This document shows positions 15,769 through 64,000 of a DNA stretch of 64,000 bases, in pieces. Position 1 is the first letter of the stretch, and the number at the start of each line of letters is the position of its first letter. Source of the stretch: Mayamaea pseudoterrestris (Eukaryota); NCBI GenBank assembly GCA_027923505.1, contig BROI01000023.1:124001-188000 (forward strand). Direction: 5' to 3'. The notes under the pieces are model-generated. The model worked only from the letters and a program-made list of their open reading frames with translations, was not told the origin of the DNA and ran no database searches. Both the position numbers and the translations under genes were made by a program.

Positions 15769-15960
15769 AACGAGTGCCAGTGGTAAACTTCACAAGGCAA
15801 TAGTACGAAACGAGTGCCAGTGTCAATTACGTCATTAGGCAATAGTATGAAACGATTGCCAGTGAAAACTGCGTCATAAGGCTGTAGTAAGAAACGATTG
15901 CCAGTGAAAACTGCGTCAGAAGGCAATATTATGAAACGAGTGCCAGTGTCAATTACGTCA
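15769..15960 (-). repeat. Second cluster of the same 42-bp minisatellite in inverted orientation, about 4.6 copies
   Basis: CGA(G/T)TGCCAGTG at 15771, 15811, 15853, 15895 and 15937; reverse complement of the 9649-9824 unit. Confidence 0.93.
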
Positions 15961-16106
15961 TTCTTTCATTCCCGCTTGCTGGAATGGATCGTCGCGAACA
16001 ACCACACACCTCGAGCCGTTTCTCTCGTCGCATCATTCTCTTTGCTCCAACACAATTTTCTATATACTCGCTACTCTCTTTTACAGTACCTTCGTCTATT
16101 AAATAC

Positions 16107-20279: not shown

Positions 20280-20370
20280 GCTATGATGCGGAAGGACACT
20301 CTTAAAGTCAAATAACTGATTATCAGACGATAGTACTCATGGATAAACATATCTAAATGTACATTAAAAA

Positions 20371-33849: not shown

Positions 33850-34110
33850 TGTCAGTTTCGTCTTTTGCCTTACTACCTCCGATAGTATTCAATTCCCAAT
33901 TGTCGTCTACTTGGAGACGGCTTGCAGCTCGCTGGCTTTTGTTCTTTGAAATCCAAGGATCGCCCGCGTCACGCCGTCGCGTTTTCGCGTCTTTTCATTC
34001 TCGCTTTGTCCGTTGACTCGCCACAACCGCTCACTCGTCCGTTTCCGGATCCTTCCACTCACTCCATTCAAGTCCAACTAGCAGCACGTTTCTCGTCGCT
34101 ACCTACCATC

Positions 34111-35226: not shown

Positions 35227-35897
35227 CAGAAAGAGGAATGACTAATGAAGAGTGAGCATTTGCACATTGTAATCGCATGCGGCTGTGAAGCCCTTGCCTG
35301 GCTAGAGCGATAGAATTTGATTAAAAATATAGCCTCTGACTGATGCTGCGAACGTATGGGCATGATATTAATTATGGAGCTTCCAGATTGCGACTACCGG
35401 CAGTAGTATTTGCTGCAATAGCAATATGCTTGCCCGTACAATGGAACCTCGTTTGGCAAGCGGCAAACGCTTACGTTAATCCGACATCGATTTGACGATT
35501 CTGTGCCACTTTTACAAGGCATGTATATATAAACTTCCAACTTTTGCCAATCTCGTCTGGCGGGGATGTAGCATCCGCAAAGCTCGCGCGAGAACGAGAC
35601 ATTGTCCAGAATTGAATAAATATATGCCCTTCAACGATTGAACATCATTGACATTTCTGCATCGTCTAATTCGGATTGTCGGGCGTCGAGTTCAAGCTAC
35701 AATCATGAATACCTCAATTTTTTCTATTGCCTCGTGACCTTTTTCAATTAAGCCAGGTGCAGAAACCGAAGCCTATTCCGTCACGGTGATGCCATGTCAA
35801 GCCTTCCGCACCTTTCGCTGGCCAGTTTCAACCATTGTTCCATTCTCCAGCACCAAGATCCACGTTCGATTGAAACCAGCGCGAGGAACGATCCACC

Positions 35898-38620: not shown

Positions 38621-39220
38621 TGCTTTGGGTTTGACATGGTTACATCTAATATCTAGTAGACTACGTTACTTCTGTATGTCTCTACTTCTTTTAGCTACGC
38701 GCATGTTGCTCGGTTGTTGCGCACCATGGTGAATAATATAAGCGCTGGTGCGCAAAGGGCATCATCAACCCATCCGTCGTCATCTGACTGACGTAGATAA
38801 ATGACTGTGACGTACTGCGATCAATGTCTTTTCGGTCGTTCCAACTGCCCACTTCGTCGACAGGGCAATAATAGGTTGTTCGTCAGTTTGTCGAAGGTGT
38901 TCGCTTTCTGTTTCATAAATATCATTCCCGAAATGGCCAATTAGGCCACGTCAATGCAGATGTTGAGGTTGCGATGTGCATATTGAAGAGCTGTTCCATG
39001 CGTGTTCGCCCTTTGTCGCCTTTCTCCCAGACCACGCATCTTTCACCTCCAACCTGCCGCTCAAAGCAACACAGCGCAACAGCGCAACAGTGCAACCCAT
39101 TGACGCAGTCTACGATAGGCAAACGATTGAGGTACTCAAGAAGTGAATTACGCAGCGAAAATCTAACTCGTAGCAGGCAGCGTTGCAAGCAACCATCATT
39201 GACTCTGTTTTTTAACGACC

Positions 39221-41931: not shown

Positions 41932-42071
41932 TTAGCTTGGCATTTTAAATAAAATCGATGTGTTACATGTTTGTCGTACCAGATTTGTGCCATTTACCGC
42001 CATTGTAAGTGTCCTGTTTGCAACAGCCATTGCCTGGCGGCGTTGCCACAATGATCACTATTCCAATTTTA

Positions 42072-42270
42072 AAAGTTGCGGACAGTTGGCATGCTTTATG
42101 CAACGCTCTAATGATGGCAAAGGTGCTGCAATTGGATTCAACGACATGTGATGCTGCCAACATGCTACTACATGCTGGCCGAGAGGACCACACCCATACT
42201 GCTGCTAAATAAACTCATGCATCAGAAAATATGGATTGATGAATAAAGCAGTGATTAAGGAATGAAGTAA
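42072..42270 (-). pseudogene. Diverged relic of the LHC gene 3' end (last codons YFIP* plus downstream region)
   Basis: Aligns by eye with 63498-63685 (e.g. GGTGCTGCAATTGGAT, TGCTACTACATG, AGTGATTAAGGAAT). Confidence 0.8.
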
Positions 42271-42280
42271 CGCACTTGAG

Positions 42281-42952
42281 CACCATGGGGACCATGGGGA
42301 CTCATTGGACATCTGCCCTCTCATATATTCAGGCTACAAGTGAGCCACAAATGCGGTAGCTGCACCATTCGCACCGCATACTAGTCCCCAAGCACAGCCA
42401 GCCATAAATGGATGGAAATGGACCACAGCAGGTAGTGGTGGGAGGCCACACTTTAGCACCATGGGGACCATGGGGACTCATTGGACATCTGCCCTCTCAT
42501 ATATTCAGGCTACAAGTGAGCCACAAATGCGGTAGCTGCACCATTCGCACCGCATACTACGGTAGTCCCCAAGCATAGCCAGCCATAAATGGATGGAAAT
42601 GGACCACAACAGGTAGTGGTGGGAGGCCACACTTTAGCACCACGAGAATCATGGTTACTCATTCAGCATGTGCCCTCCCATATATTACAGGCTACAAGCA
42701 AGCTACAAATGAGGCAGCTGCACCAATCTGACCGCATACTAGTCCCCAAGCATAGCCATGCATAAATGGATGGAATATATACAGCGGGTAGTGCTAGGAG
42801 GCCACATTTTTGCACGACATGGATCATGGATACTCATTCAGCAGTTGCCCTCCCATACATTCCAGGCAACAAGTAAGCTACAAATGAGGCAGCTGCACCA
42901 ATCTGACTGCATACTAGTCCCCAAGCATAGCCGGACATTAATGGATGGAAAT
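42281..42952. repeat. Satellite A, 175-181-bp unit, about 3.8 copies
   Basis: Unit starts at 42281, 42457, 42638 and 42813. Confidence 0.95.
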
Positions 42953-45077
42953 GCCATCACCCTGGATGCTATTGGTGATATTTGGCAGATCCAACAACTT
43001 GTTGGATCTGCGAGCCATGCACCTCAAGAAGCAAGTCCAGCTGCCGGAATGGCCCACAGACCCTGGAATACAACAAACATGCAATTCAACATTGAATGGG
43101 ACTGATAGTCTTGTCATTTTGGGTGTGGAACCCATCACCATGCCAGGAGACTCCGCACATTCAACAAATGGTTGAATGTGCCAGCAGTGCCCCCTTTTTG
43201 GCTACAGGGATCATCAGCATTGCATGCCGAGCCCAACGAACCCTTTCAATTCATGTTTGTTGACATGATGGGCTAGGAATGTGGTTACATGCACCTCAGT
43301 ATCCATCACCATGGATGCTATTGGTGATACTTGGCAGATCCAACAACTTGTTGGATCTGCAAGCCATGCACCTCAGGTGGCAAGTCCAGCTGCCTGAATG
43401 GCTCACAGACTCTAGAATACAACAAACATGCAATTCAACATTGAATGGGACTGATAGTCTTGTCATTTTGGGTGTGGACCCCATCACCATGCCAGGAGAC
43501 TCCACACATTCAACAACAAATGGTTGAATGTGCCAGCAGGGTCCCCTTTTTGGCTACAGGGATCATCAGCGTTGCGTGCCAAGCCCTCCAATCCCTTTCA
43601 ATTCATGTTTGTTGACATGATGGGCTAGGAATGTAATTACATGCACCTCAGTATCCATCACCATGGATGCTACTGGTGATACTTGGAAGATCCAACAACT
43701 TGTTGGATCTGCAAGCCATGCACCTGCCTGAATGGCCCACAGACCCTGGAATACTACAAACATGCAATTTAACATTGAATGGGATTGATAGTCTTGTCAA
43801 TTTTGGGTGTGGAACCCATCACCATGCCAGAAGACTCAGCACATTCAACAAATGGTTGAATGTGCCAGCAGGTTCCCCTTTTTTGCTACACGGATCATCA
43901 GCATTGCGTGCCGAGCCCTCCAATCCCTTTCAATTCATGTTTGATGACATGATGGGATAGGAATGTGGTTACATGCACCTCAGTATCCATCACCATGGAT
44001 GCTATTGGTGATACTTGGCAGATCCAACAACTTGTTGGATCTGCAAGCCATGCACCTCAGGTGGCAAGTCCAGCTGCCTGAATGGCTCACAGACTCTAGA
44101 ATGCAACAAACATGCAATTCAACAATGAATGGGACTGATAGTCTTGTCATTTTGGGTGTGGACCCCATCACCATGCCAGGAGACTCCGCACATTCAACAA
44201 CAAATGGTTGAATGTGCCAGCAGTGCCACCTTTTCGGCTACAGGGACCATCAGCATTGCGTGCCAAGCCCTCCAATCCCTTTCAATTCATGTTTGTTGAC
44301 ATGATGGGCTAGGAATGTAATTACATGCACCTCAGTATCCATCACCATGGATGCTACTGGTGATACTTGGCAGATCCAACAACTTGTTGGATCTGCAAGC
44401 CATGCACCTCAGGTGGCAAGTCCAGCTGCCTGAATGGCCCACAGTTCCTGGAATACTACAAACATGCAATTTAACATTGAATGGGATTGATAGTCTTGTC
44501 AATTTTGGGTGTGGAACCCATCACCATGCCAGAAGACTCCGCACATTCAACAAATGGTTGAATGTGCCAGCAGAGTCCCCTTTTTGGCTACACGGATCAT
44601 CAGCATTGCGTGCCGAGCCCTCCAATCCCTTTCAATTCATGTTTGATGACATGATGGGATAGGAATGTGGTTACATGCACCTCAGTATCCATCACCATGG
44701 ATGCTATTGGTGATACTTGGCAGATCCAACAACTTGTTGGATCTGCGAGCCATGCACCTCAAGTGGCAAGTCCAGCTGCCTGAATGGTCCACAGACCCTG
44801 GAATACAACTAACATGCAATTCAATATTGAATGGGACTGATAGTCTTGTCATTTGGGTGTGGAACCCATCACCATGCCAGGAGACTCCGCACATTCAACA
44901 AATGGTTGAATGTGCCAGCAGTGCCCCCTTTTTGGCTACAGGGATCATCAGCATTGCTTGCTGAGCCCTCCAATCCCTTTTTATTCATGTTTGTTGACAG
45001 GATGGGCTAGGCATGTGGTTGCATGAACCTCAGTATCCATCACCATGGATCTTGTTGGATCTGTGAGCCATGCACCT
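42953..45077. repeat. Satellite B (~349-bp unit), block 1, about 6 monomers
   Basis: The unit GGAATGTGGTTACATGCACCTCAGTATCC... (and its variants) recurs every ~335-352 bp. Confidence 0.98.
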
Positions 45078-48000
45078 TAACACCGTTGACGATTTCGCAG
45101 TCAACGTCTTACCTCCAAAAAGCTCCGATACAGGGTCCTTGGCCACGGTCTGTACAGCTCTTGATGGAGATGGCTCGTCGAATAGTCTTGCGCTCGCCAC
45201 TACACGAATACGACTGCACTCTCGTCGCAAACTAGTAGTTCTATATTGTGAGCTTATCGCTACATCACTACATCGACCACTCGGAAGATCATCCGATCAA
45301 TCCGTTTCTTTCAATCACATTACATCAGTCGTAATCGATCGTTCCATTCATACAACGCATCCACGCGACGGTTGCGCACTTTCTTCATTCACATGTCACA
45401 TACGACAGCTGCGGACTCGACACAAGCTAATTAGGGTTCGGGCACTTGACTTCGCCGCTCTGCGACTTGTCACCTCCCTGCGCTGCTCGTGCAGCCGGCA
45501 TTCTTGTCCTTCACAATCGCACCGCATACTATGCAAAACAATACGGCTAGCAATGGCATCGCATCACAGTACGGAGGTACTTGGCAGATCCGCAATGTTC
45601 TCCTTTCCGTCAATCTTCACAAACTTGGTAATCCCCGCAGCAACTGCCCAACGAACACAGGCAGGCCAAGGAATTGTACTTGGACAACGTCGGACCCGGA
45701 TTGTAGATGTAATCACTGCGGTGTCCGTACATCCAGGCAGACTTCTCCAATGGACGCCCATAGCCATGCGAGCGACGCACGAGAAAAGTGCTGATATCCG
45801 TTTCACTCTTCACGACTCCGATCGACAAGCGCAGTCTCGACTGTAGCCTGGAGTTTGCAATGCCAGTCGACAGGCGTCTGGTTGACAAATGACAAAACTC
45901 CTTCCAATGACTTGCCTGTCACCATGCAATGCATGAGACACGCATCCTCGAAAGTTGATGTTCGTACAGTCACACCCTTTGGCGGTGGGTAGACATCCAA
46001 CATCTCATCAACTCCGTCCTTCCCGTAAACGCTGCGCTCCCAATCTTGTTCCTCCATGGTGCCGAAGTGCTCCTCGTTGGCTGGCCACTTCGTGCGGAAA
46101 CGGATTGCTGCATCCGGTAACTCTTGCAAATATCCACAGACTCGCTTCACCCGCTGCAGGTGTCCCTTGCGCGGCTCCACACGGAATCGCGACAGACTCA
46201 CAACTGCTACGGCAATGTCAAATCGTCCCAAAGTAATCGCCCACTGAAGTGCTCCGACTAGAAACTGGTAAATCTTCTTCTCTTGGTCGTTCAGTAGCTC
46301 GCTTTGGTCAAGTTCTGGATGATCGTCTTTGTTGATTGGTGATGAGTACTTCTTCGGAGGCCCTTCAAACAAACGCTCGTACTGCGCCAAGAGTTTCGCA
46401 ACGTAGGTCTTGGCCGACCAGTAAAGAGTTCCATCAGGGTCTCGTCCAAAGTCACCGCCGAGATGATACTCGGGATGTCCAACACCTTTGAGCTTAAACT
46501 TGTACTTCTCCTCTAGCATCTTGAAGAACGCTGCTGGATCGTCTGAAATATTCAACAGATCGTCGACCCATACACAGAGGTAGTCGTAGCTGTCGCCGGC
46601 GTCCTTGATCCACAGATCGGAATCGCAATAGGATGGCTTCCACCCTTCCGCAAGTAGGGCGTCGGCTAAGCGTTCGTGAAATCGTGCTCCGCTCGTTCGC
46701 AATCCCCTACAGCGCCTTGGCGATGACCAGGATGTGTCTTCGCGCTCCCCGAACTCGGGCTCCAACGATACCTTCTCCTTGGTGAACGCTTCGAGATAAG
46801 CATTCCCAATGTCGGCGACCGTGCACTTCTTGCCGTTCGCTTCTCCAATGACGAGAGCTAGACGCATTGCCTTCAATGAGATAACACTGGAGTAGGCATC
46901 GTCGTTGTCTTTCGTCATGTGGCCGCCTGCAACAAGACGTGCCTTGTATCGCAAATCGTGCTTGACATCGTACACAAAATAAGCTCGGATCTTTTGGTAA
47001 CCAGTTGGTGGTGCTGTGGTGGAACTCGGACCGAGATCTTGAAACGTCTCGTACTTGTCCAGGTTTGCCAGCTCCACGCCTTCCGCATCCGTCCACTTCG
47101 TGTGCCCTGCAGCTTCCTGCAAACGTCGCGCTTCCTTCCAATCTTGGGGTACTTGGACTCCAAACTTGTAGCGCGGTCCGTTCTTCTGCTGCTCCATTCG
47201 GGCGGTCGCCACCTTGCGCGCAACCTTCTTGGCGTTCCGGGCCCATCGATTCAGCGATGTCCATCCGTCCTTGTCGAGAAGATTATGCTTTTGCGCGTAG
47301 GCTGCCACCGATACTTTGTCGCTTTCGATCATCGCGTTGAGAGGCTCCCAAGTCTTGGATCCATCATCCCATTGTACAAGGACGTTCCACTTGGAGTGCT
47401 TCCAGTTCCTCGACTTGCTCGTCAGCGGACCCTGATGGTCTAGAATCTCCTTGAAGAACCATTTACACTCAGGATTCGCCATGTCTTGGTTCACTTCGGC
47501 CTCGTAGAGATCGGAAACCTCGACTTAGGACATGACTTCGTCTGCTTCGCCGTTACCAAGCTTCAGCATCATTTTAATGTTCTGATGATTCTGGGCGTCG
47601 CGGTTGTTCAGCTTGCTCTCGCTACACTTCGGTCTCCTCTTGATGCCACGACGATTGTGGGATTTTCAGGAGGTTCCAAAATGGGGGTGTACGCCATCGG
47701 TTGCGGGTCTTGGATTTGATCAGCATGTAGGGAAACGGGCCCAAAAGATTGTGTAGTAGTTTGGCGTCATTGTAGTTCTCTTCCTTGCTGGACCACTGGA
47801 TAAGCCAATTGACGGAGACTTGGCGTAACCCGACGAAAATTGCATTCGTCTTCGGCCGAACGAGATCCAACTCGGCGCCATCCCATCGAGGTACTCCAAC
47901 TCTGCAATGCACGCTGAGGCATTGGTCGATGTGTTTGACAAGAGTCTCGGTGTCTTGCAGGTATACCTCGAAACGCGCTAAAAACCTTGAACACTGATAC

Positions 48001-48950
48001 TGATACGATTGGGTCGAGTGCAGCTGGTGGCTTGAACTCGTCCTAGCCAAGTCACTGCATGCGGTTCTTGAAGGCCCGCCAGTATGAGCAGAACTCGATC
48101 GTTCTTGAGTCCGCATTTTCAAATGCGTCGTGTTGTTTGCCAAGTGAAGTCACGTGTGCTGTACCCGAATGTGGTCTGGTCTTTCTCCAGGTTTTGCCAT
48201 TGCGCAGTCGTCTGATGTTGCTCGTGAATCCAACTCATGAGCTTGCGCAATCGGCTTGTTCGTATCGTCGACCAATGGTACTGGTTCTTAATGTTCGTCG
48301 CGTCTTGTTCCGACAACTCGGTCATCGCCTCCGCAGTCGTGAGTTCTTCGGATTCGAAGCATACTGCGGTAGGGTCGTTTGGATCCCAAGTAGCGGATGC
48401 TGCGAGCCACGGAATGTCAAAGACTTTACCGACGGCACGCTTGTAGGTCGTTACATCAATCTCGAAATCCGTTGGTTGATCAGAGGAATGACTTGCTGCA
48501 GATGAATTTGTCACGATAGCTCCTCGCTGGGTCTCGAAGCACTGAAGTGTTAATCTAACACCGTTGACGATTTCGCAGTCAACGTCTTACCTCCAATAAG
48601 CTCCGATACAGGGTCCTTGGCCACGGTCTGTACAGCTCTTGATGGAGATGGCTCGTTGAATAGTCTTGCGCTCGCCACTACACGAATATGACTGCACTCT
48701 CGTCGCAAACTAGTAGTTCTATATTGTGAGCTTATCGCTACATCGCTACATCGACCACTCGGAAGATCATCCGATCAATCCGTTTCTTTCAATCACATTA
48801 CATCAGTCGTAATCGATCGTTCCATTCATACAACGCATCCACGCGACGGTTGCACACTTTCTTCATTCACATGTCACATACGACAGCTGCGGACTCGACA
48901 CAAGCTAATTAGGGTTCGGGCTCTTGACTTCGCTGCTCTGCGACTTGTCA
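45078..48950 (-). mobile_element. Ty1/Copia (CoDi-like) LTR retrotransposon 1, internally deleted; LTRs 45078-45472 and 48556-48950; TSD CACCT
   Basis: 395-bp LTRs with 7 differences seen, a PPT-like AGGGAGG and gag remnants at 48119-48514. ORF 45803-47494 carries chromo-like, RT (KARLVAGGH, WVDD) and RNase H regions. No protease or integrase core is seen. Confidence 0.95.
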
Positions 48951-51900
48951 CACCTCAGGTGGCAAGTCCAGCTGCCTGAATGGCCCACAGACCCTGGAAT
49001 ACAACAAACATGCAATTTAACAGTGAATGGGACTGATAGTCTTGTCATTTTGGGTGTGGAACCCATCACCATGCCAGGAGACTCCGCACATTCAACAAAT
49101 GATTGAATGTGCCAGCAGGGTCCCCTTTTTGGATACAGGGATTATCAGCATTGCGTGTGGAGCCCTCCAAACCCTTTCAATTCATGTTTGTTGACATGAT
49201 GGGCTAGGAATGTGGTTACATGCACCTCAGTATCCATCACCATGGATGTTATCAGTGATACTTGGCAGATCCAACAACTTGTTGGATCTGCGAGCCATGC
49301 ACCTCAAGTGGCATGTCCAGCTGCCTGAATGGCCCACAGACACTGGAATACAACAAACATGCAATTCAACATTGAATGGGACTGATAGTCCTGTCATTTT
49401 GGGTGCGGAACCCATCACCATGCCAGGAGACTCCACAATATTAACAAATGGTTGAATGTGCCAGCAGTGCCCCCTTTTTGGCTACAGGGATCATCAGCAT
49501 TGCCTGCGGAGCCCACCAATCCCTTTCAATGCATGTTTGTTGACATGATGGGTTAGGAATGTGGTTACATGCACCTCAGTATCCATCACCATGGATGCTA
49601 TTGGTGATACTTGGCAGATCCAACAACTTGTTGGATCTGCAAGCCATGCACCTCAGGTGGCAAGTCCAGCTGCCTGAATGGCTCATAGACTCTAGAATAC
49701 AACAAACATGCAATTCATCATTGAATGGGACTGATAGTCTTGTCATTTTGGGTGTGGACCCCATCACCATGCCAGGAGACTCCGCACATTCAACAAATGG
49801 TTGAATGTGCCAGCAGTGCCACCTTTTCGGCTACAGGGATCATCAGCATTGCGTGCCAAGCCCTCCAATCCCTTTCAATTCATGTTTGTTGACATGATGG
49901 GCTAGGAATGTAATTACATGCACCTCAGTATCCATCACCATGGATGCTACTAGTGATACTTGGCAGATCCAACAACTTGTTGGATCTGCAAGCCATGCAC
50001 CTCAGGTGGCAAGTCCAGCTGCCTGAATGGCCCACAGACCCTGGAATACTACAAACATGCAATTTAACATTGAATGGGATTGATAGTCTTGTCAATTTTG
50101 GGTGTGGAACCCATCACCATGCCAGAAGACTCTGCACATTCAACAAATGGTTGAATGTGCCAGCAGGGTCCCCTTTTTGGCTACAGGGACCATCAGCATT
50201 GCGTGCCGAGCCCTCCAATCCCTTTCAATTCATGTTTGATGACATGATGGGATAGGAATGTGGTAACATGCACCTCAGTATCCATCACCATGGATGCTAT
50301 TGGTGATACTTGGCAGATCCAACAACTTGTTGGATCTGCGAGCCATGCACCTCAAGTGGCAAGTCCAGCTGCCTGAATGGCCCACAGACCCTGGAATACA
50401 ACTAACATGCAATTCAATATTGAATGGGACTGATAGTCTTGTCATTTGGGTGTGGAACCCATCACCATGTCAGGAGACTCCGCACATTCAACAAATGGTT
50501 AAATGTGCCAGCAGTGCCCCCTTTTTGGCTACAGGGATCATCAGCATTGCATGCTGAGCCCTCCAATCCCCTTTTATTCATGTTTGTTGACAGGATGGGC
50601 TAGGAATGTGGTTGCATGCACCTCAGTACCCATCACCATGGATCTTGTTGGATCTGTGAGCCATGCACCTCAGCACCCCAGGTGGCAAGTCCAGCTGCCT
50701 GAATGGCCCACAGACCCTGGAATACAGCAAACATGCAATTTAACATTGAATGGGACTGATAGTCTTGTCAATTTGGGTGTGGAACCCATCACCATGCCAG
50801 GAGACTCCAAACATTCAACAAATGGTTGAATGTGCCAGCAGTGCCCCTTTTTTGGATACAGGGATCATCAGCATTGCCCCCTTTTTGGCTACAGGGATAT
50901 CAGCATTGCGTGCCAAGCCCTCCAATCCCTTTCAATTCAATTTTGTTGACATGATGGGCTAGGAATGTAGTTACATGCACCTCAGTATCCATCACCATGG
51001 ATGCTATTGGTGATACTTGGCAGATCCAACAACTTGTTGGATCTGCAAGCCATGAACCTCAGGTGGCAAGTCCAGCTGCCGGAATGGCCCACAGACCCTG
51101 GAATACAACAAACATGCAATTCAACATTGAATAGGACTGATAGTCTTGTCATTTTGGGTCTGGAACCCATCACCATGCCAGGAGACTCCGCACATTCAAC
51201 AAATGGTTGAATGTGCCAGCAGTGCCCCCTTTGTGGCTACAGGGATCATCAGCATTGCGTGCCGAGCCCTCCAATCCCTTTCAATTCATGTTTGTTGACA
51301 TGATGGGCTAGGAATGTGGTTACGTGCACCTCAGTATCCATCACCATGGATGCTATTGGTGACACTTGGCAGATCCAACAACTTGTTGGATCTGCGAGCC
51401 ATGCACCTCAGGTGGCAAGTCCAGCTGCCTGAATGGCCCACAGACCCTGGAATACAACAAACATGCAATTCAACAATGAATGGGGCTGATAGTCTTGTCA
51501 TGTTGGGTGTGGAACCCATCACCATGCCAGGAGACACCGCACAATCAACAAATGGTTGAATGTGCCAGCAGGGTCCCCTTTTTGGCTACAGGGATCATCA
51601 GCAATGCGTGCCGAGCCCTCCAATCCCTTTCAATTAATGTTTGTTGACATGATGGGCTAGGAATGTGGTTACATGCACCTCAGTATTCATCACCATGGAT
51701 GCTATTAGTGATACTTGGCAGATCCAACAACTTGTTGGATCTTCAAGCCATGCACCTCAGGTGGCAAGTCCAGCTGCCTGAATGGCCCACAGACCCTGGA
51801 ATACTACAAACATGCAATTTAACATTGAATGGGACTGATAGTCTTGTCATTTTGGGTGTGGAACCCATCTCCATGCCAGGAGACTCCGCACATTTAACAA

Positions 51901-53048
51901 ATGGTTGAATGTGCCAGCAGGTTCCCCTTTTTTGCTACAGGAATCATCAGCATTGCGTGCCGAGCCCTCCAATCCCTTTCAATTCATGTTTGTTGACATG
52001 ATGATCTAGGAATGTGGTTACATGCACCTCAGTATCCATCACCATGGATGCTATTGGTGATACTTGGCAGATCCAACAACTTGTTGGATCTGCAAGCCAT
52101 GCACCTCAAGTGGCAAGTCCAGCTGCCTGAATGGCCCACAGACCCTGGAATACAAGAAAGATGCAATTCAACATTGATTGTGACTGATAGTCTTGTCATT
52201 TTGGGTGTGGAACCCATCACCATGCTAGGAGACTCCGCACATTCAACAAATGGTTATATGTGCCAACAGGGTCCCCTTTTTGGCTACAGGGATCATCAGC
52301 ATTGCATGCCAAGCCCTCCAATCCCTTTCAATTCATGTTTGTTAACATGATGGGCTAGGAATGTGGTTACATGCACCTCAGTATCCATCACCATGGATGC
52401 TATTGGTGATACTTGGCAGATCCAACAACTTGTTGGATCTGCCAGCCATGCACCTCAAGTGGCATGTCCAGCTGCCTGAATGGTCCACAGACCCTGGAAT
52501 ACAACTAACATGCAATTCAATATTGAATGGGACTGATAGTCTTGTCATTTGGGTGTGGAACCCATCACCATGCCAGGAGACTCAGCACATTCAACAAATG
52601 GTTGAATGTGCCAGCAGTGCCCCTTTTTGGCTACAGGGATCATCACCATTGCGTGCCGAGCCCTCCAATCCCTTTCAATTCATGTTTGTTGACATGATGG
52701 GCTAGGAATGGGGTTGCATGCACCTCAGTATCCATCACCATGGATCTTGTTGGATCTGTGAGCCATGCACCTCAGCACCTCAGGTGGCAAGTCCAGCTGC
52801 CTGAATGGCCCACAGACCCTGGAATACAACAAACATGCAATTTAACATTGAATGGGACTGATAGTCTTGTCATTTTGGGTGTGGAACCCATCACCATGCC
52901 AGGAGACTCTGCACATTCAACAAATGGTTGAATGTGCCAGCAGTGCCCCCTTTTTGGCTACAGGGATCATCAGCATTGCCTGCGGAGCCCACCAATCCCT
53001 TTCAATTCATGTTTGTTGACATGATGGGCTAGGAATGTGGTTACATGC
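48951..53048. repeat. Satellite B block 2, about 12 monomers
   Basis: Same unit, resuming exactly at the TSD. Confidence 0.98.
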
Positions 53049-56000
53049 TGTCACAATGATGATCTAGTCCAGTCGCTTGACTGAACCTAGACGTCGCCGG
53101 GGGCGCACGAGCTTAGTACTCGAACCTCCATTGCGGTACCAGAAAAGACATCTACTCACAACTACGTCATTGAAAAATTGCATGTGTGCCAGCTGCAGGC
53201 ACGATTAAACAAGATTAGTATTCACTATTGTGAATGGTCTTGAAAGAGCCATCTGATCAAGCGCTCTTTCTTGACCGAACGTAACTCATCTCACTTTCTA
53301 GAGAACTGCTTAATCAACTAACGTTTTGTAGGATAAGACCCCTGTAGGATAACCAAAGTAAAGGACTGATCATCCCACTCACTTGGCAACCGACTACAGA
53401 GGGTGAGGAATCGTTGCAGCCGTACGAACTGGAACTGCATCGTGTCAGATCACACAGTCTTGGTCTTTACAATCAACTCTCTCGGGCGCTGGTGACGACC
53501 ACTCCCGTCGTTTCGTTGCACACTACATTGGCAGTGGACATCCCTCGTTCATTTCCTGTCCGAGGCTTCAATTTACACTAGTCCGGCAGACAAAGGGATT
53601 GAAGACCGAGTCGAGTTGCAAGCATCGCTCGGATAGAATCAACTTCCTTGATTATTCTTGCGGTATATATTTATCCCGTACCAATCAACCAACAACATGA
53701 CCGTCGTCGAAGAAGATCCTCCCGGTGGACCCAATGTCATGCAAGATGACGCGGAAGACAACTCACTCGCTGTCGGATTGAAAAGCATTTACAAGCTGAA
53801 GACCGTCAACAACGACAAGTTCATGAAACTTCCAGTCATCGTCACCATCAAGTCACTTCTCCCAGAAGGACGCCTACTCACGGAGCCATTCCTAATGCTG
53901 ACCGTCAAGGACATTGAGTTGGTACTGAAGGAATCCAAACGCACATCACGGTTATTCAAACCATCACCCGCCTTCATCAATGGGCATCGGAAGAGTGTGA
54001 ACTCAAGGAATGGGTGACGCTCATGTTCGCTGCACTCATTCGTGTGACTGAATCGGCCAAAGAGACCCTATTCCAAAGCGACTTGAGTCGGATTCAACGA
54101 GTCGGCTCATCGGACGTTCAAGAGAAGTCCGAGGCGGAGAAGTGCAAAGCTCGCGTCCGAGTCGACACCAAAGCATACACCAAGTTCATAAACGAGTACA
54201 AATTCCATCAATGGTGGCTCAAGACGTTCGCAATGGCCAAGAACCAAGGCATCGAGCGAGTCTTCGATCTGGACTTCAAACCGGCAACGCTTTCGCCCAA
54301 AGATCTCGAGGTATTCAAAGCGCAAGAAGCCACAGCATTCAACATCATCACGTCATACTGCAAAGTTGCCAACTGCATCCCGATCATTCGTTGCCACAAG
54401 GACAGGTCGGCCCACGAGTGCTTCAAGGAAATGCACAAGATGTACTTGACGGGCAAGAACACCGAGCGCGCAGCGCAGCGAGCCGAGTCGAGAGTTCGTG
54501 ACATGAAACTGACGAACGACCACGGCAGCACGTACACTGCATGGTTCACTCAATGGCAGAATGCCTTGCTCAATTACGAAGATTACACCGGCGAAACAGT
54601 CCCCGATGCGACGCGCAAGAAGTGGTTGTCCGAGTTGGTTCACTGGAACGACGCCTTTCGCCAAGAAATCAGTTCGGCGAGTCGTATCCTCAACGCGCAA
54701 GGTCAAGACCAAAGCTTCAACAACTGGTACAAGCAGCTCATCGAGTTCGCTCGCAATACCGATGACATCAAGTCGGCGCGCAAACGCCAAATGAAGATCC
54801 ACCAATCCATCCAACAAGCAAGTACTCCACCGACTGGAGGCACTCCACCAACTAGCGGCAATACTCCAAGTAGCGGCCAAGGCGGAAACGGTCATGGAAA
54901 TGGCAGTGGATGCGGAACCGGTCGTGGTTCTGGACGCGGTGGTGGACGCGGTGGCCGAGGTAACTTCGGACGAGGTGGTGGATGCGGACAGTGCACCAAT
55001 TTCTCTGGGGCATCGAACCGTTGAGTCGAGCCGGATGTATGGTTCTCTTGGATGGAGGAGCAGCGTGAAGCTCACAAGGCAGAAACTCACCAAATCCGAG
55101 AAGCGGAATGTGCGCGCCTGCAGCTGAACGCAAACCAAGCCAACATGAACAACACTAATACACCACCAACTCCACAGATTGAACTTCCACCAACGAATAC
55201 GATGGTGATGTCAACCATGTCAGCGATTAATCAGCCTACAGTCGGAACTACACCAGCACGTGGAACCGCCATGCTCGCATTTCAGTCTCAGCAACAAGGT
55301 TCAATCGCTCAAGGAAGCCAGCCATCTACTCCACCAGTGTATCAAGCACGAGTCGGCAACGTTACATACAACATGTATCGTGCCAATGCAACCAACGTCA
55401 TGCATCGTTCTACAAACCATGTCGCTACACATAACGTCTCGTACGCAGATGCGCTTATGGGTATGAATACTCCGGCAACTGAAGGACCACACGCATCACA
55501 GTTCCATGTTACTCGTGCAATCACGTCTCAAAGCCCATCCATGATGGATCGCGGTGCCAATGATTCGATTGCTGGTAAGGACATGATTTGCTTGGATCAA
55601 TTGATGACTCAGTTTGCCAACATTACCGTAATCGACAATCACATGATGCAAGGACTACCCATCGGAACATTCGCCGCCAAGATCTGGATGACGGAAGGGT
55701 ACGTCATTGGCATTTTCTACCAGTACGCCGACGGAGGAACCGACGCGGCCATCCATTCGGTCGTTCAGCTCGAGGACTTCGGAAACAAGGTATTCGACAA
55801 GGCAAGCGCACTTGGCGGACGGCAGCTCATGATTACACCCAAAGGAGCATTGATTCCATTCACGGTCCAGAACGGTTTGGTCCATTTGAAGATGCATCAT
55901 TTCACCAACGCCGAGTTTGACACGTTGCCACACGTCGTCATGACAGCGACACGCCTTGGGATCCGTCAAAGTACGATGGAGACCTTAATGACGATTCGAT

Positions 56001-59000
56001 CCAAATGGAAATTGAAGCCGCGACGGACGATCATGAAACACCAACACTACTAGTCAACAACACCCAAGTCAACGGAAATGCGCAAGATGAATATCCCGAA
56101 GACCTTTCAGTCAAAACACTCAACGTCGTCTCATGGAACGGACTCAAAACCCACGAGTGGGAGCACTTTAGCAACGAGTTGGACCCTATGCAGGTCAAAA
56201 CCGAGGCTCCATCCGAGCGCATTGCCGACATTGTACCCAACGACGCTTCTTACAATACAAATCCACAACAGGATGACATTTCACTACCCTCACTACTCTC
56301 ACGTGGAACCATATCGACATCCAGATCAAGCCATGCTCAGAACCCCAACGACGCAACGTTCGAATACGACAACACTGCCGGGGAAATGTACGATCCGTAC
56401 GAGCTGCTGATCAATGCCGCAATAGTAGAAGCTGGAGGCAATCCATTTTCTGGACTAGCCGGCCGACCGGCATGCACTGTGGTTCCTACGCGACCAGATT
56501 ACCAAATGCTTCGTCCCAACTTTGGATTTCTACCCACTGATTGTATCAAGGAGACTCTCAAGAACACTACTCAATTCTACCGCGCTGAGCAACGTTTCCC
56601 TCAGCGACGCCATTTGCGTACTCATTTCCCGGGTGCAAATGTTCGTGGACTACCTGAAGAAGTTGCCATGGACACACAATTCTCCGACACACCCGCACTC
56701 AACGATGGTATTCCTGGACATGCCGGATGCCAAGCAGCGCAACTCTACGTCTGTATGCAGAGCAGATTGGTTTGCGTCTTGAACAAGGGGCAAGTTCTGT
56801 TGACGCTCATGCAGTTTATCAATGATTGCGGTGTTCCACTTGGTCTGATCTCAGATGGAGCCAAGGAAGAAAACAGCCTAGCGATTCGAGAAATCAAATG
56901 CCAGTTTATGATCCGTAAGCACTGGGTCAGCAAACTCAAAATCACAAGCTCAAAACCATGGACGCAGCCAACCATCACAACATCAAGTTCCTACTCAAAA
57001 TCAGCAAAAAGAAGCTGAAGAAGTCATAGACTACATCCGACTCTGCGAATTGTATCTGAAGGACCAAGCAGCGATGGTAAACGTTCCTGAACACCACTGG
57101 ACGATTAAAGCAATCCTGTCGCACAAAGGACCACTCACAAAGCAATCCGCCGGATGGAAAGGCTCCATGTACAACATCAAAGTCGTGTGGGAAGACAATT
57201 CAACGACTTGGGAGCCATTGAATGCTTTAGCACGCGATGACATCATTTCCTGCGCTCGCTACGCCAAGGCAAACAGACTACTCAACAAGAAAGGCTGGAA
57301 GTTCCTACGTGACGCAGCCCGACGCGCACGTATCGCTCGTCGAACCGTAAACCAAGCCAAGCAACAACGCAGCATTTGACACAAGTTCAGCGTCAAGGTA
57401 CCACATGATCCAAAGGAAGCTCAAAAGTTCCAAGAAGAACTCCGGCATACCAAATGGACCGACGCGGAGAAGGTAGAAGGTAGAGCTGTAAAGCCTGTTC
57501 GAATACACCTTCATTGATCTCGGATTGAATGCCACCCTCCCGAAGGCTATCAAAAGATTCGCACTATCTGGGTCTATGACTGCAAGCAAGACTTTCGTCA
57601 CAAGGCTCGGATGGTTGCTGGTGGACACCGTACAGATCCTGTCAAGGACTCATACTCGAGCATCATCTCACTTGAATCACTGCGCCTAGCCCTGGCAATA
57701 GGGGAGTTGAATGGACTCACTCCCATGGTAGGCAACATCGGAATTGCTTACCTCAAAGCCAAAACCAAAGAAAAGATTTACTTCATCACTGGGCCTGAGT
57801 TTGGCGACTTGGAAGGCCACACACTCATCATCTACAAAGCACTTTACGGCCTACGCACAAGCGGAGCACGATTCCATGAGCGGCTCGCAGACGCGCTACG
57901 AGCGGAAGGCTTCAAAGCCTCGTACGCCGATCCAGACATTTGGATTCGTGATGCTGGCCATTGTTACAAATACATTTGCACTTGTGTTGATGGCCTTATG
58001 GCAATCATGATTAACCCGGGCGCATTCTACGACATTCTTTGCAACAAGTACAAGTTCAAGCTCAAGGGCGTTGGGTGCCCAGAGTACCATCTAGGCGGCG
58101 ACTTCGGACGTGACCCTGACAGAATATTATTCTGGGGCGCCAAGACCTACATCACCAAGCTTCTAGCCAACTACGAGCGTACATTCAACGGACCACCACC
58201 AAAGTACAGCTCTCCACTTGACTCTCACCACCACCCGGAACTTGACCAGACATCCCTTTTAGGGGAGTCGGACATCAAGATCTACCAATCGTTTGTCGGA
58301 GCCCTTCAGTGGGTGATCACCCTTGGCCAATTTGACATCTGCAGTGCCACCGCCTGCCTGTCACGCTTCCGTGGACAGCCTCGCATTGGACACCTCGACT
58401 GAGTCAAGCATGTATGCAGCTACCTCCGCAAGTTTCCTGAGGCAGCCATCCGCTTTCGCACCCAGTGGCCGCAGAATGAAATCATCTTCAGTGACTCACC
58501 AACCTATGACTGGCAACAAACCGTCTACGACAACCCCAAGGAAGAGGTCCTTTCACTCTGGCCCAAACCAAAAGGGCAAGACAGTTCGCCTTACTACCCT
58601 CAAAGATGCCAACCTGATGCATTGCAAAGTCACCGGCAAAGCATGCACTGGAATCCTTCACTTCATTCAGCAGACTCCGTTCAAGTGGTTTGCCAAACTT
58701 CAAGATACCATCAAACATGCGACCTTCGGCTCTGAACTCATGAGCGGGCGCGTTGCAACCGACCATATCCTAGGCATACGCACGTCACTCATGGCAATGG
58801 GTGTTCCCATTGAGTCCTCTTCATGGCTACTCGGTGATTACCAATCAGTCATCACGCAGTGTACAGTGCCTACATCCACACTCACCAAGCGCCACAATGT
58901 ACTCGCATACCATTGTATCCGTTGGTGCGTAGCAGCCGGAATTATCAAGTTTGTCAAGATTGCCGGCAAGGAAAACGCTTCCGATGCACTTACCAAGTAC

Positions 59001-59567
59001 CTACCCTACATCGACGCATGGCCCCTACTCAAACCATTACTGTTCTGGTGTGGCAAAACCTTGGATCCTGGAGAACTCGAATTCTACCTTATGGACCCTC
59101 TCAAGGGGAGCCAACTCCAGGGGAGCTCATTGAGCTTACACCTGTCCTGGCACACCTACAAGGGGAGTGTCACAATAATGATCTAGTCCAGTCGCTTGAC
59201 GCGAACCTAGACGTCACCGGGGGCGCACGAGCTTAGTACTCGAACCTCCATTGCGGTACCAGAAAAGACATCTACTCACAACTACGTCATTGAAAAATTG
59301 CATGTGTGCCAGCCGCAGGCACGATTAAACAAGATTAGTATTCACTATCGTGAATGGTTTTGAAAGAGCCATCTGATCAATCGCTCTTTCTTGACCAAAC
59401 GTAACTCATCTCACTTTCTAGAGAACTGCTTAATCAACTAGCATTTTGTAGGATAAGACCCCTGTAGGATAAACCAAGGTAAAGGACTGATCATCCCGGT
59501 CACTTGGAAACCACTAAAGAGGGTGAGGAATCGTTGCAGCTGTACGAACTGGAACTGCATCGTGTCA
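53049..59567 (+). mobile_element. Ty1/Copia (CoDi-like) LTR retrotransposon 2, near full-length but degenerate; LTRs 53049-53447 and 59168-59567; TSD CATGC
   Basis: TG..CA LTRs about 95% identical and PPT AAGGGGAG. The order is gag (53697-55024), protease-like DRGAN, integrase fragment (VAMDTQFSDTPA..ISDGAKEE), chromo-like domain, RT and RNase H, with stops and frameshifts. Confidence 0.96.
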
Positions 59568-60084
59568 CATGCACCTCAGTATCCATCACCATGGATGCTA
59601 TTGGTGATACTTGGCAGATCCATCAACTTGTTGGATCTGCAAGCCATGCACCTCAGGTGGCAAGTCCAGCTGCCTGAATGGCCCACAGACCCTGGAATAC
59701 AACAAACATGCAATTCAACATTGAATGGGACTGATAGTCTTGTCATTTTGGGTGTGGAACCCATCACCATGCCAGGAGACTCCGCACATTCAACAAATAG
59801 TTGAATGTGCCAGCAGTGCCCCCTTTTTGGCTACAGGGATCATAAGTATTGCGTGCCGAGACCTCCAATCCCTTTCAATTCATGTTTGTTGACATGATGG
59901 GCTAGGAATGTGGTTACATGCACCTCAGTATCCATCACCATGGATGCTATTGGTAATACTTGCCAGATCCAACAACTTGTTGGATCTGCAAGCCATGCAC
60001 CTCAGGTGGCAAGTCCAGCTGCCTGAATGGCCCACAGACACTGGAATACAACAAACATGCATTTTGACATTGATTGGGACTGAT
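59568..60084. repeat. Satellite B block 3, about 1.5 monomers
   Basis: Same unit. Confidence 0.95.
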
Positions 60085-60089
60085 CAAGC

Positions 60090-60522
60090 TGTGTTTTGCA
60101 GCTACATTCCTGCTGAAAATCCAAGCAGTAATTTGCTTCATCATTCCTGCCAGATTTCCAAGCGGCAATTTGCTTAATCATTCCAGCTGGAACTGCAAGC
60201 GGTGTTTTGTGGCTACATTCCTGCTGAAATTCCAAGCAGTAATTTGCTTCATCATTCCGCCAGAATTCCAAGCGGCAATTTATGTCCACATTCCTGCTGA
60301 AATTCCAAGCAGTAATTTGCTTCATCATTCCTGCCAGAATTCCAAGCGGCAATTTGCTTTCACATTCCAGCTGTAACTTCAAACAGTGTTTTGCGTCCAC
60401 AACAGGTAAGAATCTGTTTTGCGTCCACATTCCTGCTGAAATTCCAAGCAGTAATTTGCTTCATCATTCCTGCCAGAATTCCAAGCGGCAATTTGCTTTC
60501 ACATTCCAGCTGTAACTTCAAA
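60090..60522. repeat. Minisatellite C, 37-bp unit (CATTCCTGCTGAAATTCCAAGCAGTAATTTGCTTCAT) with a trimeric superstructure
   Basis: CATTCC at 60105, 60142, 60179, 60216, 60253, 60289, 60326, 60363 and onward. Confidence 0.92.
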
Positions 60523-61469
60523 CATGTTTTGCTTGAATCATTGGGTATTTGGGTGGCCAGGGCATGGGGCGTTTGACAGGAAAGAATCTGCAACTTGTGG
60601 TGTTGGACATACCCACAGTGGAGGCCGTACCCATGGTGTCAGCCTCCAGGCAGTCCTTTTTGCACCATTTGAGACTCTGCACCTGTCAATGGCATACCCG
60701 GAGCATGTTCTGCCTGACTCATTGGGTATTTGGGTGGCCAGGGCATGGGGCGTTTGACAGGGAAGAATCTGCAACTTGTGGTGTTGGCCACACCCACAGT
60801 GGAGGTCGTACCCATGGTGTCCAGCCTCCAGGCAGTCCTTTTTGCACCATTTGATACTCTGCACCTGTCAATGGCATACCCTGAGCATGTTTTGCCTGAC
60901 TCATTGGGTATTTTGGTGGCCAGGGCATGGGGTGTTTGACAGGGAAGAATCTGCAACTTGTGGTGTTGGCCAGCCGAACCCATGGTGTCCAGCCTCCAGG
61001 CAGTCCATTTTGCACCATTTAAGACTCTGCACCTGTCAATGGCATACCCTGGACATGTTTTGCCTGACTCATTGGGTATTTGGGTGACAAGGAATAATCT
61101 GCAACTTGTGGTGTTGGCCATACCCACAGTGGAGGCCGTACCCATGGTGTCAGCCTCCAGGCAGTCCTTTTTGCACTATTTGAGACTCTGCACCTGTCAA
61201 TGGCATACCCTGAGCATGTTCTGCCTGACTCATTGGGTATTTGGGTGGCCAGGGCATGGGGCGTTTGACAGGGAAGAATCTGCAACTTGTGGTGTTGGCC
61301 ACACCCACAGTGGAGGTGCCCAGCCTCCAGGCAGTCCTTTTTGCACCATTTGAGACTCTGCACCTGTCAATGGCATACCCTGGACTTGTTTTGCCTGACT
61401 CATTGGGTATTTTTGGGTGGCCAGGGCATGGGGCGTTTGACAGGGAAGAATCTGCAACTTGTGGTGTTG
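60523..61469. repeat. Satellite D, ~181-bp unit (some monomers with deletions), about 5.5 copies
   Basis: Unit starts at ~60523, 60704, 60886, 61054, 61215 and 61385. Confidence 0.95.
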
Positions 61470-63493
61470 GGTGTCGAGCCCTCCTATCCCTTTCAATTCA
61501 TGTTTGTTGACATGATGGGCTAGGAATGTGGTTTCATGCACCTCAGTATCCATCACCATGGATGCTATTGGTGATACTTGGCAGATCCAACAACTTGTTG
61601 GATCTGCAAGCCATGCACCTCAGGTGGCAAGTCCAGCTGCCTGAATGGCACACAGACCCTGGAATACAACAAACATGCAATTCAATATTGAATGGGACTG
61701 ATAGTCTTGTCATTTTGGGTGTGGAACCCATCACCATGCCAGGAGACTCCGCACATTCAACAAATGGTTGAATGTGCCAGCAGTGCCCCCTTTTTGGCTA
61801 CAGGGATCATCAGCATTGCATGCCGAGCCCTCCATCCCTTTCAATTCATGTTTGTTGACATGATGGGCTAGGAATGTGGTTACATGCACCTCAGTATCCA
61901 TCTCCATGGATGCTATTGGTGATACTTGGCAGATCCAACAATTTATTGGATCTGCGAGCCATGCACCTCAGGTGGCATGTCCAGCTGCCTGAATGGCCCA
62001 CAGACCCTTGAATACAACAAACATGCAATTTAACATTGAATGGGACTGATAGTCTTGTCATTTTGGGTGTGGAACCCATCACCATGCCAGGAGACTCCGC
62101 ACATTCAACAAATGGTTGAATGTGCCAGCAGGGTCCCCTTTTTGGCTACAGGAATCATCAGCATTGCGTGCCGAGCCCTCCAATCCCTTTCATTTCATGT
62201 TTGTTGACATGATGGGCTAGGAATGTGGTTACATGCACCTCAGTATCCATCACCATGGATGCTATTAGTGATACTTGGCAGATCCAAAAACTTGTTGGAT
62301 CTGCGAGCCATGCACCTCAGGTGGCAAGTCCAGCTGCCTGAATGGCCCACAGACCCTGGAATACAACAAACATGCAATTCAACAATGAATGGGGCTGATA
62401 GTCTTGTCATGTTGGGTGTGGAACCCATCACCATGCCAGGAGGCAACACCGCACAATCAACAAATGGTTGAATGTGCCAACAGTGCCCCCTTTTTGGCTA
62501 CAGGGATCATCAGCAATGCGTGCCGAGCCCTCCAATCCCTTTCAATTCATGTTTGTTGACATGATGGGCTAGGAATGTGGTTACATGCACCTCAGTATCC
62601 ATCACCATGGATGCTATTGGTGATACGTGGCAGATCCAACAACTTGTTGGATCTGTGAGCCATGCACCTCAGGTGGCAAGTCCAGCTGCCTGAATGGGCC
62701 ACAGACCCTGGAATACAACAAACATGCAATTCAACATTGAATGGGACTGATAGTCTTGTCATTTTGGGTGTGGAACCCATCACCATGCCAGGAGACACCG
62801 CACATTCAACAAATGGTTGAATGTGCCAGCAGGGTCCCCTTTTTGGCTACAGGGATCATCAGCATTGCGTGCCAAGCCCTCCAATCCCTTTCAATTCATG
62901 TTTGTTGACATGATGGGCTTGGAATGTGGTTACATGCACCTCAGTATCCATCACCATGGATGCTATTGGTGATACTTGGCAGATCCAACAACTTGTTGGA
63001 TCTGCGAGCCATGCACCTCAAGTGGCAAGTCTAGCTGCCTGAATGGCCCACAGACCCTGGAATACAACAAACATGCAATTCAACATTGAATGGGACTGAT
63101 AGTCTTGTCATTTTGGGTGTGGAACCCATCACCATGCCAGGAGACTCCGCACCTTTAACAAATTGTTGAATGTGCCAGCAGTGCCCCTTTTTGGCTACAG
63201 GGATCATCACCATTGCGTGCCGAGCCCTCCAATCCCTTTCAATTCATGTTTGTTGACATGATGGGCTAGGAATGTGGTTACATGCACCTCAGTATCCATC
63301 ACCATGGATGCTATTGGTGATACTTGGCAGATCCAACAACTTGTTGGATCTGCCAACCATGCACCTCAAGTGGCAAGTCCAGCTGCCTGAATGGCCCACA
63401 GACCCTGGAATACAACTAACATGCAATTCAATATTGAATGGGACTGGTAGTTTTGTCATTTTGGGTGTGAAACCCATCACCATGCCAGGAGAC
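61470..63493. repeat. Satellite B block 4, about 6 monomers
   Basis: Same unit; the array ends abruptly at ...CCAGGAGAC. Confidence 0.97.
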
Positions 63494-63669: not shown

Positions 63670-64000
63670 TTAAGGAATATAGTAGCCAGCATTTGCACTC
63701 TCATGAAGAGCCTCTCCCAATGGTTTGAAGAAAACAGGAGTTTCCTTGACCACTGAGAGGGACGTTACTTTTTCTTGTACAGCGAAGGCTGTTATCGCAA
63801 TCATTGCCAACCTGCCATTCTTGAGCTCCGCCAGCTGCATTCGCTTCTGTCCTTCCGTCTCCTTGAGGTAGAGTCCAAGCGGGTCGAAGCTGAGGTTGCC
63901 AGCAAAGTAGGAGGGGTTGTTGCTCTTGGCCTTGGAGATTCCGTACACGTCAATGGCCGCGGCAACTGTGAGAACAACGATCCAGTAAATAATGGGGCTG
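63670..64000 (-). CDS. Light-harvesting complex (fucoxanthin-chlorophyll a/c binding) protein, 3' part
   Basis: GNLSFDPLGL and MQLAELKNGRLAMIAI (helix 3 motif); the gene starts beyond the window. Confidence 0.93.
   Translation of the reverse strand, partial: SPIIYWIVVLTVAAAIDVYGISKAKSNNPSYFAGNLSFDPLGLYLKETEGQKRMQLAELKNGRLAMIAITAFAVQEKVTSLSVVKETPVFFKPLGEALHESANAGYYIP

Follow-up and report, generated by a model that had tools for sequence, protein, structure and literature searches.

Satellite centromeres with nested long terminal repeat (LTR) elements are familiar from plants, for example the 178-bp repeats with ATHILA elements of Arabidopsis and the CentO repeats with CRR elements of rice. 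The knobs of maize, made of the 180-bp knob repeat and the 350-bp TR-1 repeat with inserted retrotransposons, are megabase-sized and cytologically visible, and form neocentromeres only with Ab10 drive. General statements on plant-type satellite centromeres with LTR retrotransposons are given in PMC7082073 and PMC11541908. Among the stramenopiles, the centromeres of Phytophthora sojae are 211-356 kb long, contain many copies of a copia-like element and lie within H3K9me3/H3K27me3 heterochromatin (PMC7082073), and Ectocarpus carries centromere-specific LTR elements in addition to a 98-bp subtelomeric satellite (PMC11541908). For the diatom Phaeodactylum tricornutum, the accessible part of 10.1101/096016 describes centromeres as CENP-A peaks of 2.4-5.6 kb with a low guanine-plus-cytosine (GC) content and without repeats. 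The predicted centromeres of the allopolyploid Fistulifera solaris, which has 44 chromosomes, have a GC content of 36-42% and lack highly repeated elements, according to the accessible part of 10.1101/2021.11.10.468027. Literature searches turned up no description of a diatom satellite family or of a diatom satellite centromere. The subject of this study is a 21.2-kb island of repeats, centred on a 349-bp satellite (satellite B), in a stretch of 64,000 nucleotides from Mayamaea pseudoterrestris (contig BROI01000023.1, positions 124,001 to 188,000). This whole stretch is called the window, and its own numbering is used throughout.

The island is a new instance of a class already known, that of satellites interrupted by nested LTR retrotransposons and presumably subject to cytosine methylation, in a group from which few such satellites have been described. 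With a probability of about 0.6, it may be regarded as non-centromeric, constitutive, cytosine-methylated interstitial heterochromatin formed on the abundant satellite B. An earlier note, written from the letters alone, had offered an interstitial heterochromatin island as one of its two explanations of this DNA. That proposal is supported by the presence of genes on both sides, by a depletion specific to CpG, and by CpG hypermutability in both the B units and the LTR pairs of the retrotransposons.

The island and its mutational footprint

The switch from genes to repeats was abrupt, at position 42273, and the island extended from there to 63486, as delimited by Tandem Repeats Finder (TRF), a repeat scan and a BLAST search of the window with the repeat units. 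Tandem repeats and LTR elements covered 21,212 of its 21,214 bases, and the island was free of genes. It was composed of satellite B (8.75 kb; approximately 25 units in four blocks), two LTR retrotransposons, TE1 and TE2 (10.4 kb; 49%), and the small arrays A, C and D. Both the abrupt switch and a gene-free block of about 21 kb made only of tandem repeats and two LTR elements had been claimed in the earlier note, and both were borne out.

The CpG observed/expected (o/e) ratio was 0.99-1.32 in all 21 of the 2-kb windows of the gene region, as against 0.15-0.28 in the 2-kb windows of pure satellite. For the individual satellites the ratio was 0.14 (B), 0.28 (A), 0.14 (C) and 0.42 (D). One B unit contained 5 CpG where 22.2 were expected (p 1e-5). 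GpC was normal (23 observed, 22 expected), and the depletion was CpG-specific. The TpG+CpA o/e ratio of the satellites was 1.57-1.82, compared with 1.21 in the flank, and satellite CpG sites had been lost approximately 5-7-fold.

The same dinucleotide stood out among the variable positions. Of the 286 minor-allele substitutions in the B alignment, 42 fell in its 8 CpG columns, a density of 5.25 per column versus 0.71 elsewhere (~7-fold), and the variants at these columns were CG, TG and CA. Five of the 7 differences between the two LTRs of TE1 were CpG transitions (p 0.002), and 8 of the 17 substitutions between those of TE2 were in CpG context (p 1e-4). CpG depletion, TpG/CpA excess and CpG hypermutability, which make up the mutational footprint of 5-methylcytosine, were thus all found. 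The simplest reading of the depletion and hypermutability is that they would be the footprint of long-standing CpG methylation confined to the island, and hence of silenced heterochromatin.

Satellite B and the minor arrays

The features of the island and its two flanking genes are as follows (ORF, open reading frame; TSD, target-site duplication).

39203..41931, + strand: left flanking gene, the second of two tandem pairs of a GAF-HisKA ORF and a response-regulator ORF (Pfam GAF, HisKA, Response_reg; CpG o/e ~1.0)
42273..42953, + strand: satellite A, 175 bp x 3.8 (TRF, BLAST; CpG o/e 0.28; at this locus only, by contig depth)
42954..45077, + strand: satellite B block 1, 349-bp units, ending in the TE1 target-site copy CACCT
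45078..48950, - strand: TE1, Ty1/copia-type, an internal-deletion derivative (LTRs 45078-45472 and 48556-48950; TSD CACCT; RVT_2 E 2e-16; tblastn)
48951..53048, + strand: satellite B block 2, ~11.8 units, starting with the TSD copy CACCT and ending with the TE2 TSD copy CATGC
53049..59567, + strand: TE2, Ty1/copia-type, near full-length and defective (LTRs 53049-~53447 and 59168-59567; TSD CATGC; RVT_2 E 7.8e-12; tblastn)
59568..60084, + strand: satellite B block 3, 1.5 units (BLAST of units, TSD analysis)
60085..60516, + strand: satellite D, 37/74-bp unit (TRF, BLAST; GC 0.43, CpG o/e 0.42)
60523..61470, + strand: satellite C, 182 bp x 5.5 (TRF, BLAST; CpG o/e 0.14)
61467..63486, + strand: satellite B block 4, 5.8 units, resuming at unit position 76 after D and C (TRF, BLAST)
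63670..63999, - strand: right flanking gene, C-terminal part of a chlorophyll a/b-binding (LHC/FCP) protein (Pfam PF00504, E 3.6e-16; the ORF runs past the end of the window)

The B unit was 349-352 bp long, with TRF scores of up to 6404, and the 26 whole or partial units had a mean pairwise identity of 94.2% (range 90.8-98.9%). With its head-to-tail units of fixed length, their high mutual identity and a high copy number in two public sequencing runs (X1 and X5), B has the properties of satellite DNA. The arrays A, C and D were each tiny (0.43-0.95 kb), and the island is essentially one satellite plus retrotransposon. A lay at the edge of B, and D and C lay together at one internal junction of B. 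Local alignments of A, B, C and D (with doubled partners, on both strands) gave z-scores of no more than 1.4 against 100 shuffles. These four families are mutually unrelated, and kinship of A, C or D to B or to one another was rejected. The earlier note had counted three unrelated satellites; their unrelatedness held, and the count was one short, the tandem family D (37/74 bp) having been overlooked.

The unit lengths of 349, 175 and 182 bp are close to the length of one nucleosome or a multiple of it, as in centromere satellites. A nucleosome repeat length for diatoms was not found among the literature matches listed, which were titles and abstract openings. The proposal that 349 bp represents 2 x 175 bp fared less clearly. 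The two halves of the B unit share an ungapped stretch of 47 nt that is 72% identical at an offset of 179, and the 11-mer CCATCACCATG recurs within the unit at an offset of 178. The circular autocorrelation of the unit has a peak at 170/179 (z 3.5), but another at 62/287 is equally high (z 3.8). Because of this rival peak, it is plausible but weakly indicated that B may be an old dimer of ~175-bp units.

When folded as single-stranded DNA, the B unit reached -72.7 kcal/mol, compared with -52.2 +/- 3.8 for 100 shuffled sequences (z -5.5), none of which was as low. This stability stems from dyads of 9-12 bp centred near unit positions 24, 167 and 203. The palindromes were no better conserved than the rest of the unit (arm variability 0.029-0.061, versus 0.039 elsewhere), and selective constraint on them was not seen in the unit alignment.

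No regular higher-order repeat was found in B, the mean identity by unit offset being flat (93.8-94.9%). Units 4-6 matched units 9-11 at 98.9, 98.0 and 97.0% (mean of the array 94.2%), which is a duplication of three units displaced by five, and from which it follows that the array expanded and was shuffled through unequal exchange. TE1 was present in just one copy of this duplication. Satellites D and C interrupt B after unit position 311, and B resumes at position 76 of the following unit (60084/60085; 61466/61467). At this junction about 114 bp of B were lost and no TSD was present, so this was not a simple insertion. Two conserved motifs of B (28 and 25 nt) had 0 matches each in scans of metagenome contigs, an absence that applies to that collection only.

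Retrotransposon insertions

The LTRs of TE1 (395-396 bp) were 98.2% identical, and those of TE2 (~400 bp) 95% identical. RVT_2 was found in both elements with Pfam. Copia-type polyproteins of approximately 1,600-2,100 aa, obtained from metagenomes as well as from the diatom Mayamaea pseudoterrestris, matched both elements; the best match was 79% identical to the TE1 ORF. The tblastn matches were collinear with polyproteins of 1,600-1,970 aa, in which a weak rve match precedes RVT_2; in the relatives P0043 and P0154 this match did not reach the Pfam cutoff. Given their LTRs, 5-bp TSDs, RVT_2 and an order of gag, protease, integrase, reverse transcriptase (RT), then RNase H, TE1 and TE2 are Ty1/copia LTR retrotransposons. 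They are different families, with 64% identity over 1.1 kb. In their LTRs, 5-bp TSDs, RVT_2 and polyprotein-like gene order they are like the diatom Ty1/copia elements (CoDi-like, named in PMC11541908); in contrast, both island copies are defective and have decayed since insertion. TE1 retains the N-terminus of gag and RT-RNase H, and lacks protease and integrase, as determined by tblastn with full-length relatives. In TE2 the polyprotein matches are broken into four pieces spread over three reading frames, and the element lacks about 0.85 kb.

Excision of either TE1 or TE2, together with one copy of its TSD, restored the reference B sequence, so that B was the target of insertion and not the cargo of the elements. 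An origin of the satellites from the retrotransposons was rejected, as within the window these elements matched only themselves and each other, and none of the four satellites. Chromodomain-mediated targeting of the copia elements to heterochromatin was also considered and rejected. No Chromo match at E <=0.1 was obtained in 5 of 5 full-length relatives of TE1, and none at E <=5 in the ORFs of TE1 and TE2, although a very divergent domain could escape detection.

The B unit contains the 12-mer CATGCACCTCAG twice, at positions 144 and 221, and each copy had received one of the two elements, with the register of insertion shifted by 4 nt between them (45073-45077/48951-48955; 53044-53048/59568-59572). 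This may indicate a common target preference or may be due to chance, at ~5% by a rough estimate, and is noted as a curiosity only.

Abundance of the repeats

Logan contigs of four public runs were aligned to positions 40000-59999, and copy number was estimated as the summed contig depth divided by the depth of the flanking gene. In run X1 a single contig, with 1 differing letter over 2,087 bases, covered this gene at a word depth of 129. The bins of pure B were at 12-215x gene depth; at position 51239, 13 contigs summed to 74,751, or approximately 580 gene-equivalents. The TE1 family was at 82-232x gene depth and the TE2 family at 30-121x. The contigs of satellite A had a depth of 260-467 against the gene depth of 129. 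This 2-3.6x excess is explained by the local copies, so A is found at this locus only. In run X5, from another study, the gene depth was 36.9 and the B bins were at 3.4-69x. The unevenness of the B bins suggests that each contig was placed once. When each contig was counted once, the eight pure-B bins held approximately 430 kb-equivalents in X1, against about 130 kb in X5.

The B depth in X1 is far beyond the 25 local units, so that B is much more abundant in the genome than at this locus, and the confinement of the satellite to one locus, which the earlier note had named as an outcome that would speak against a centromere, does not apply to it. B and both retrotransposon families are genome-wide high-copy repeats; A is local.

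Relative to the gene, B averaged 80x in X1 (organism A) and 25x in X5 (organism E) over positions 42668-53339. The TE1 family differed much less between the runs (176x in X1, 123x in X5). The contrast hints at differences in satellite copy number between strains or labels. Runs X2 and X3, which have other organism labels, contained contigs 94-97% identical to TE1 and TE2 (45128-48604, 53378-59498) and some diverged B-like pieces, with nothing over the flanking gene. These matches may come from related species that share the repeats, or equally from small amounts of this organism's DNA, of which only the high-copy repeats were assembled.

Flanking sequence

Ordinary genes are present on both sides of the island, a response regulator ending at 41931 and the LHC/FCP fragment at 63670-63999, so the island is interstitial. 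The latter lies ~180 bp beyond the last B unit. Two tandem ORF pairs adjoin the island on the left (35874-38620 and 39203-41931), each with a GAF+HisKA ORF followed by a receiver-domain ORF. This arrangement resembles a hybrid histidine-kinase gene, perhaps phytochrome-like, that has been duplicated in tandem. For a dynamitin ORF, the best named homologues were from pennate diatoms (Cylindrotheca, Nitzschia and a Bacillariaceae metagenome-assembled genome; 28-30% identity), and its best match overall was 52% identical. With these homologues and the LHC gene in the right flank, the earlier assignment of the DNA to a diatom is reasonable.

No (TTAGGG)3 match with up to 2 mismatches was found anywhere in the window, and a subtelomeric satellite was ruled out, as no telomere-like match was present and genes lie on both sides. 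An Rfam scan at E <=1 gave only two sub-threshold matches to SCARNA7, both in the LTRs of TE1, and no tRNA genes were found in the island. A 5S rDNA or other RNA-gene array and a tRNA-derived repeat were ruled out by these scans.

Elsewhere in the window, two tandem arrays of a 42-bp repeat (4.2 and 4.6 copies; 9642-9824 and 15787-15961) are inverted with respect to each other, about 6 kb apart and 83% complementary over 174 nt. They enclose an ORF of 797 aa (11528-13921, - strand) with no Pfam family and no usable protein-atlas match. The arrays could be the subterminal repeats of a DNA transposon, or else a pair with a regulatory role. A 90-bp unit is repeated twice (81% match) at 32684-32864, inside a 776-aa ORF (31558-33888, - strand) without a Pfam family.

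Discussion

The history of the island can be read in part from its sequence. The B array grew and was shuffled by unequal exchange. Two different Ty1/copia elements then entered it, each with a 5-bp target duplication, and both later decayed. If the island is interstitial heterochromatin, it would be kept CpG-methylated and silent, probably as diatoms treat transposons, via DNMT5. Loss of DNMT5a in Phaeodactylum depleted methylation and de-repressed young transposons, as described in the accessible part of PMC9998398. Deamination of 5-methylcytosine would then erode the CpGs, and the unit lengths of 175-182 bp might reflect nucleosome spacing. The island would have no kinetochore function and would be one of many genomic patches of B satellite plus transposon.

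A number of points weigh against this explanation. Every feature listed for it is equally expected of a satellite centromere or a pericentromere, and the proposed methylation is deduced solely from mutation patterns. The CpG deficit of the satellites could partly be a founder effect of one amplified unit, an objection which is weakened because four unrelated families share the deficit and because the polymorphism data are independent of composition. The interiors of the retrotransposons were not depleted (CpG o/e 1.16 and 0.96), which shows that the mark has not long acted on them; this fits a recent arrival from CpG-rich source copies. With regard to abundance, the mean over the B bins in X5 (25x) is no higher than the local copy number, which only the peak bins (69x) exceed, and summed contig depth is a crude measure of copy number whose figures are orders of magnitude only.

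The knobs of maize resemble the island in being interstitial tandem-repeat heterochromatin with units near 180 and 350 bp and inserted retrotransposons. No sequence relation exists between the two, and nothing in the island points to drive.

The alternative that survives best is a satellite-type regional centromere, the other explanation put forward in the earlier note, in which B would be the centromeric satellite, present as one array per chromosome with CENH3, and the copia elements would be centromere-associated retrotransposons. This is considered unlikely. Likewise doubtful is a model in which each chromosome carries one short array (~10-20 kb) of B, a dimeric 349-bp repeat rich in dyads, and this array recruits CENH3 while the copia elements home to it. 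The unit of ~2 x 175 bp, the strong dyad symmetries of B (fold z -5.5), the nested LTR elements and the high copy number of B throughout the genome would all agree with a centromere of this kind. The estimated ~130-430 kb of B in arrays of ~9 kb would correspond to tens of arrays, which is of the order of diatom chromosome numbers (44 in F. solaris). Like plant-type centromeres, the island has a high-copy satellite near one or two nucleosome lengths, LTR insertions with TSDs and a multi-unit segmental duplication. Unlike them, it contains only ~9 kb of satellite, its elements are Ty1/copia without a detectable chromodomain rather than chromoviruses, and its host is a diatom.

The comparison with other stramenopiles is similarly divided. 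The island shares with the centromeres of P. sojae (marked by CoLT) and Ectocarpus (ECR-1/ECR-2) the character of a gene-poor region bearing LTR retrotransposons, and CoLT, which marks the P. sojae centromeres, is copia-like, as are TE1 and TE2 (PMC7082073). Those centromeres are not described as satellite-based, whereas the substrate of the island is a satellite. The marker elements of Ectocarpus occur almost exclusively at a single site on each chromosome, and CoLT concentrates at centromeres, with few copies elsewhere (PMC11541908, PMC7082073). Unlike ECR and CoLT, the families of TE1 and TE2 are highly abundant (~70-180 gene-equivalents in X1), which makes their confinement to a few centromeres unlikely. 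The absence of a chromodomain from all five full-length TE1 relatives and the ordinary conservation of the B palindromes also speak against a satellite centromere.

Base composition is a further argument against it. The GC content of the island was 0.494, equal to that of its flanks (0.489), and that of B was 0.48; none of its 100-bp windows had <=32% GC, and its lowest 500-bp GC was 0.416. In Phaeodactylum, inserts of typical GC content (47%) failed to maintain episomes, and the low-GC, repeat-free character of the centromeres is shared by those predicted in F. solaris (accessible parts of 10.1101/096016 and 10.1101/2021.11.10.468027). A centromere of the Phaeodactylum type, recognised in the accessible part of 10.1101/096016 by a cluster of 100-bp windows with <=32% GC within 3 kb or by a low-GC 500-bp core, was itself ruled out for the island. 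The two have in common their algal group, an intergenic position and a size of a few to tens of kb; the island differs in its GC content and its lack of low-GC windows, and consists entirely of repeats where repeats should be absent.

Less probable still is a pericentromeric or positional heterochromatin, in which the island would flank a short low-GC core of the Phaeodactylum type lying tens of kb beyond the window. The methylation footprint would be compatible with this, and repeats and retrotransposons adjoin some Phaeodactylum centromeres, on chromosomes 2 and 8, in the accessible part of 10.1101/096016. However, the 64-kb window contained no low-GC cluster (2 of 1,278 100-bp windows with <=32% GC, isolated, at 20301 and 23951), and an ordinary LHC gene follows about 180 bp past the last B unit. 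The lowest-GC spot of the window, 20301-20400 (25% GC), is located just past the ORF of an AP-3 beta adaptin, and is isolated and too short for a low-GC centromere.

The chance is lower again that repeats were collapsed or mis-joined in the assembly, so that the size and order of the island are unreal. The public contigs are short, none of them spanning the island, and show many alternative joints between repeat positions, but such joints are expected from the other copies of a high-copy repeat. Both retrotransposon insertions have exact 5-bp TSDs, the phase of B is continuous across them, and contigs of X1 and X5, which are from two studies, cover the edge between genes and island (40000-42308) with 1 differing letter. 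Least probable of all is that the arrays are internal repeats of a large transposon or LTR element and not a host satellite, as although satellites often arise from transposon-internal repeats and D and C lie together inside B at an unclean junction, neither TE1 nor TE2 is similar to A, B, C or D, B continues on both sides of each element with TSDs, and a repeat scan of 41000-64000 reported no inverted repeats.

For genome assembly, the island calls for caution, since arrays of B will probably be collapsed. An abundant satellite with units of nucleosome scale, a signature of methylation decay and nested copia insertions exists in at least one diatom, and the island is natural material on which repeat-directed DNA methylation can be studied in diatoms. 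The diatom centromeres defined experimentally so far are only of the low-GC, repeat-free kind, and B provides a concrete probe for whether all diatom centromeres are of the Phaeodactylum type. If B proved to be non-centromeric, the island would represent ordinary repeat biology in an under-described group. If B were centromeric, diatoms would possess a satellite centromere in the style of plants and animals, and the centromere type would have turned over within the diatoms.

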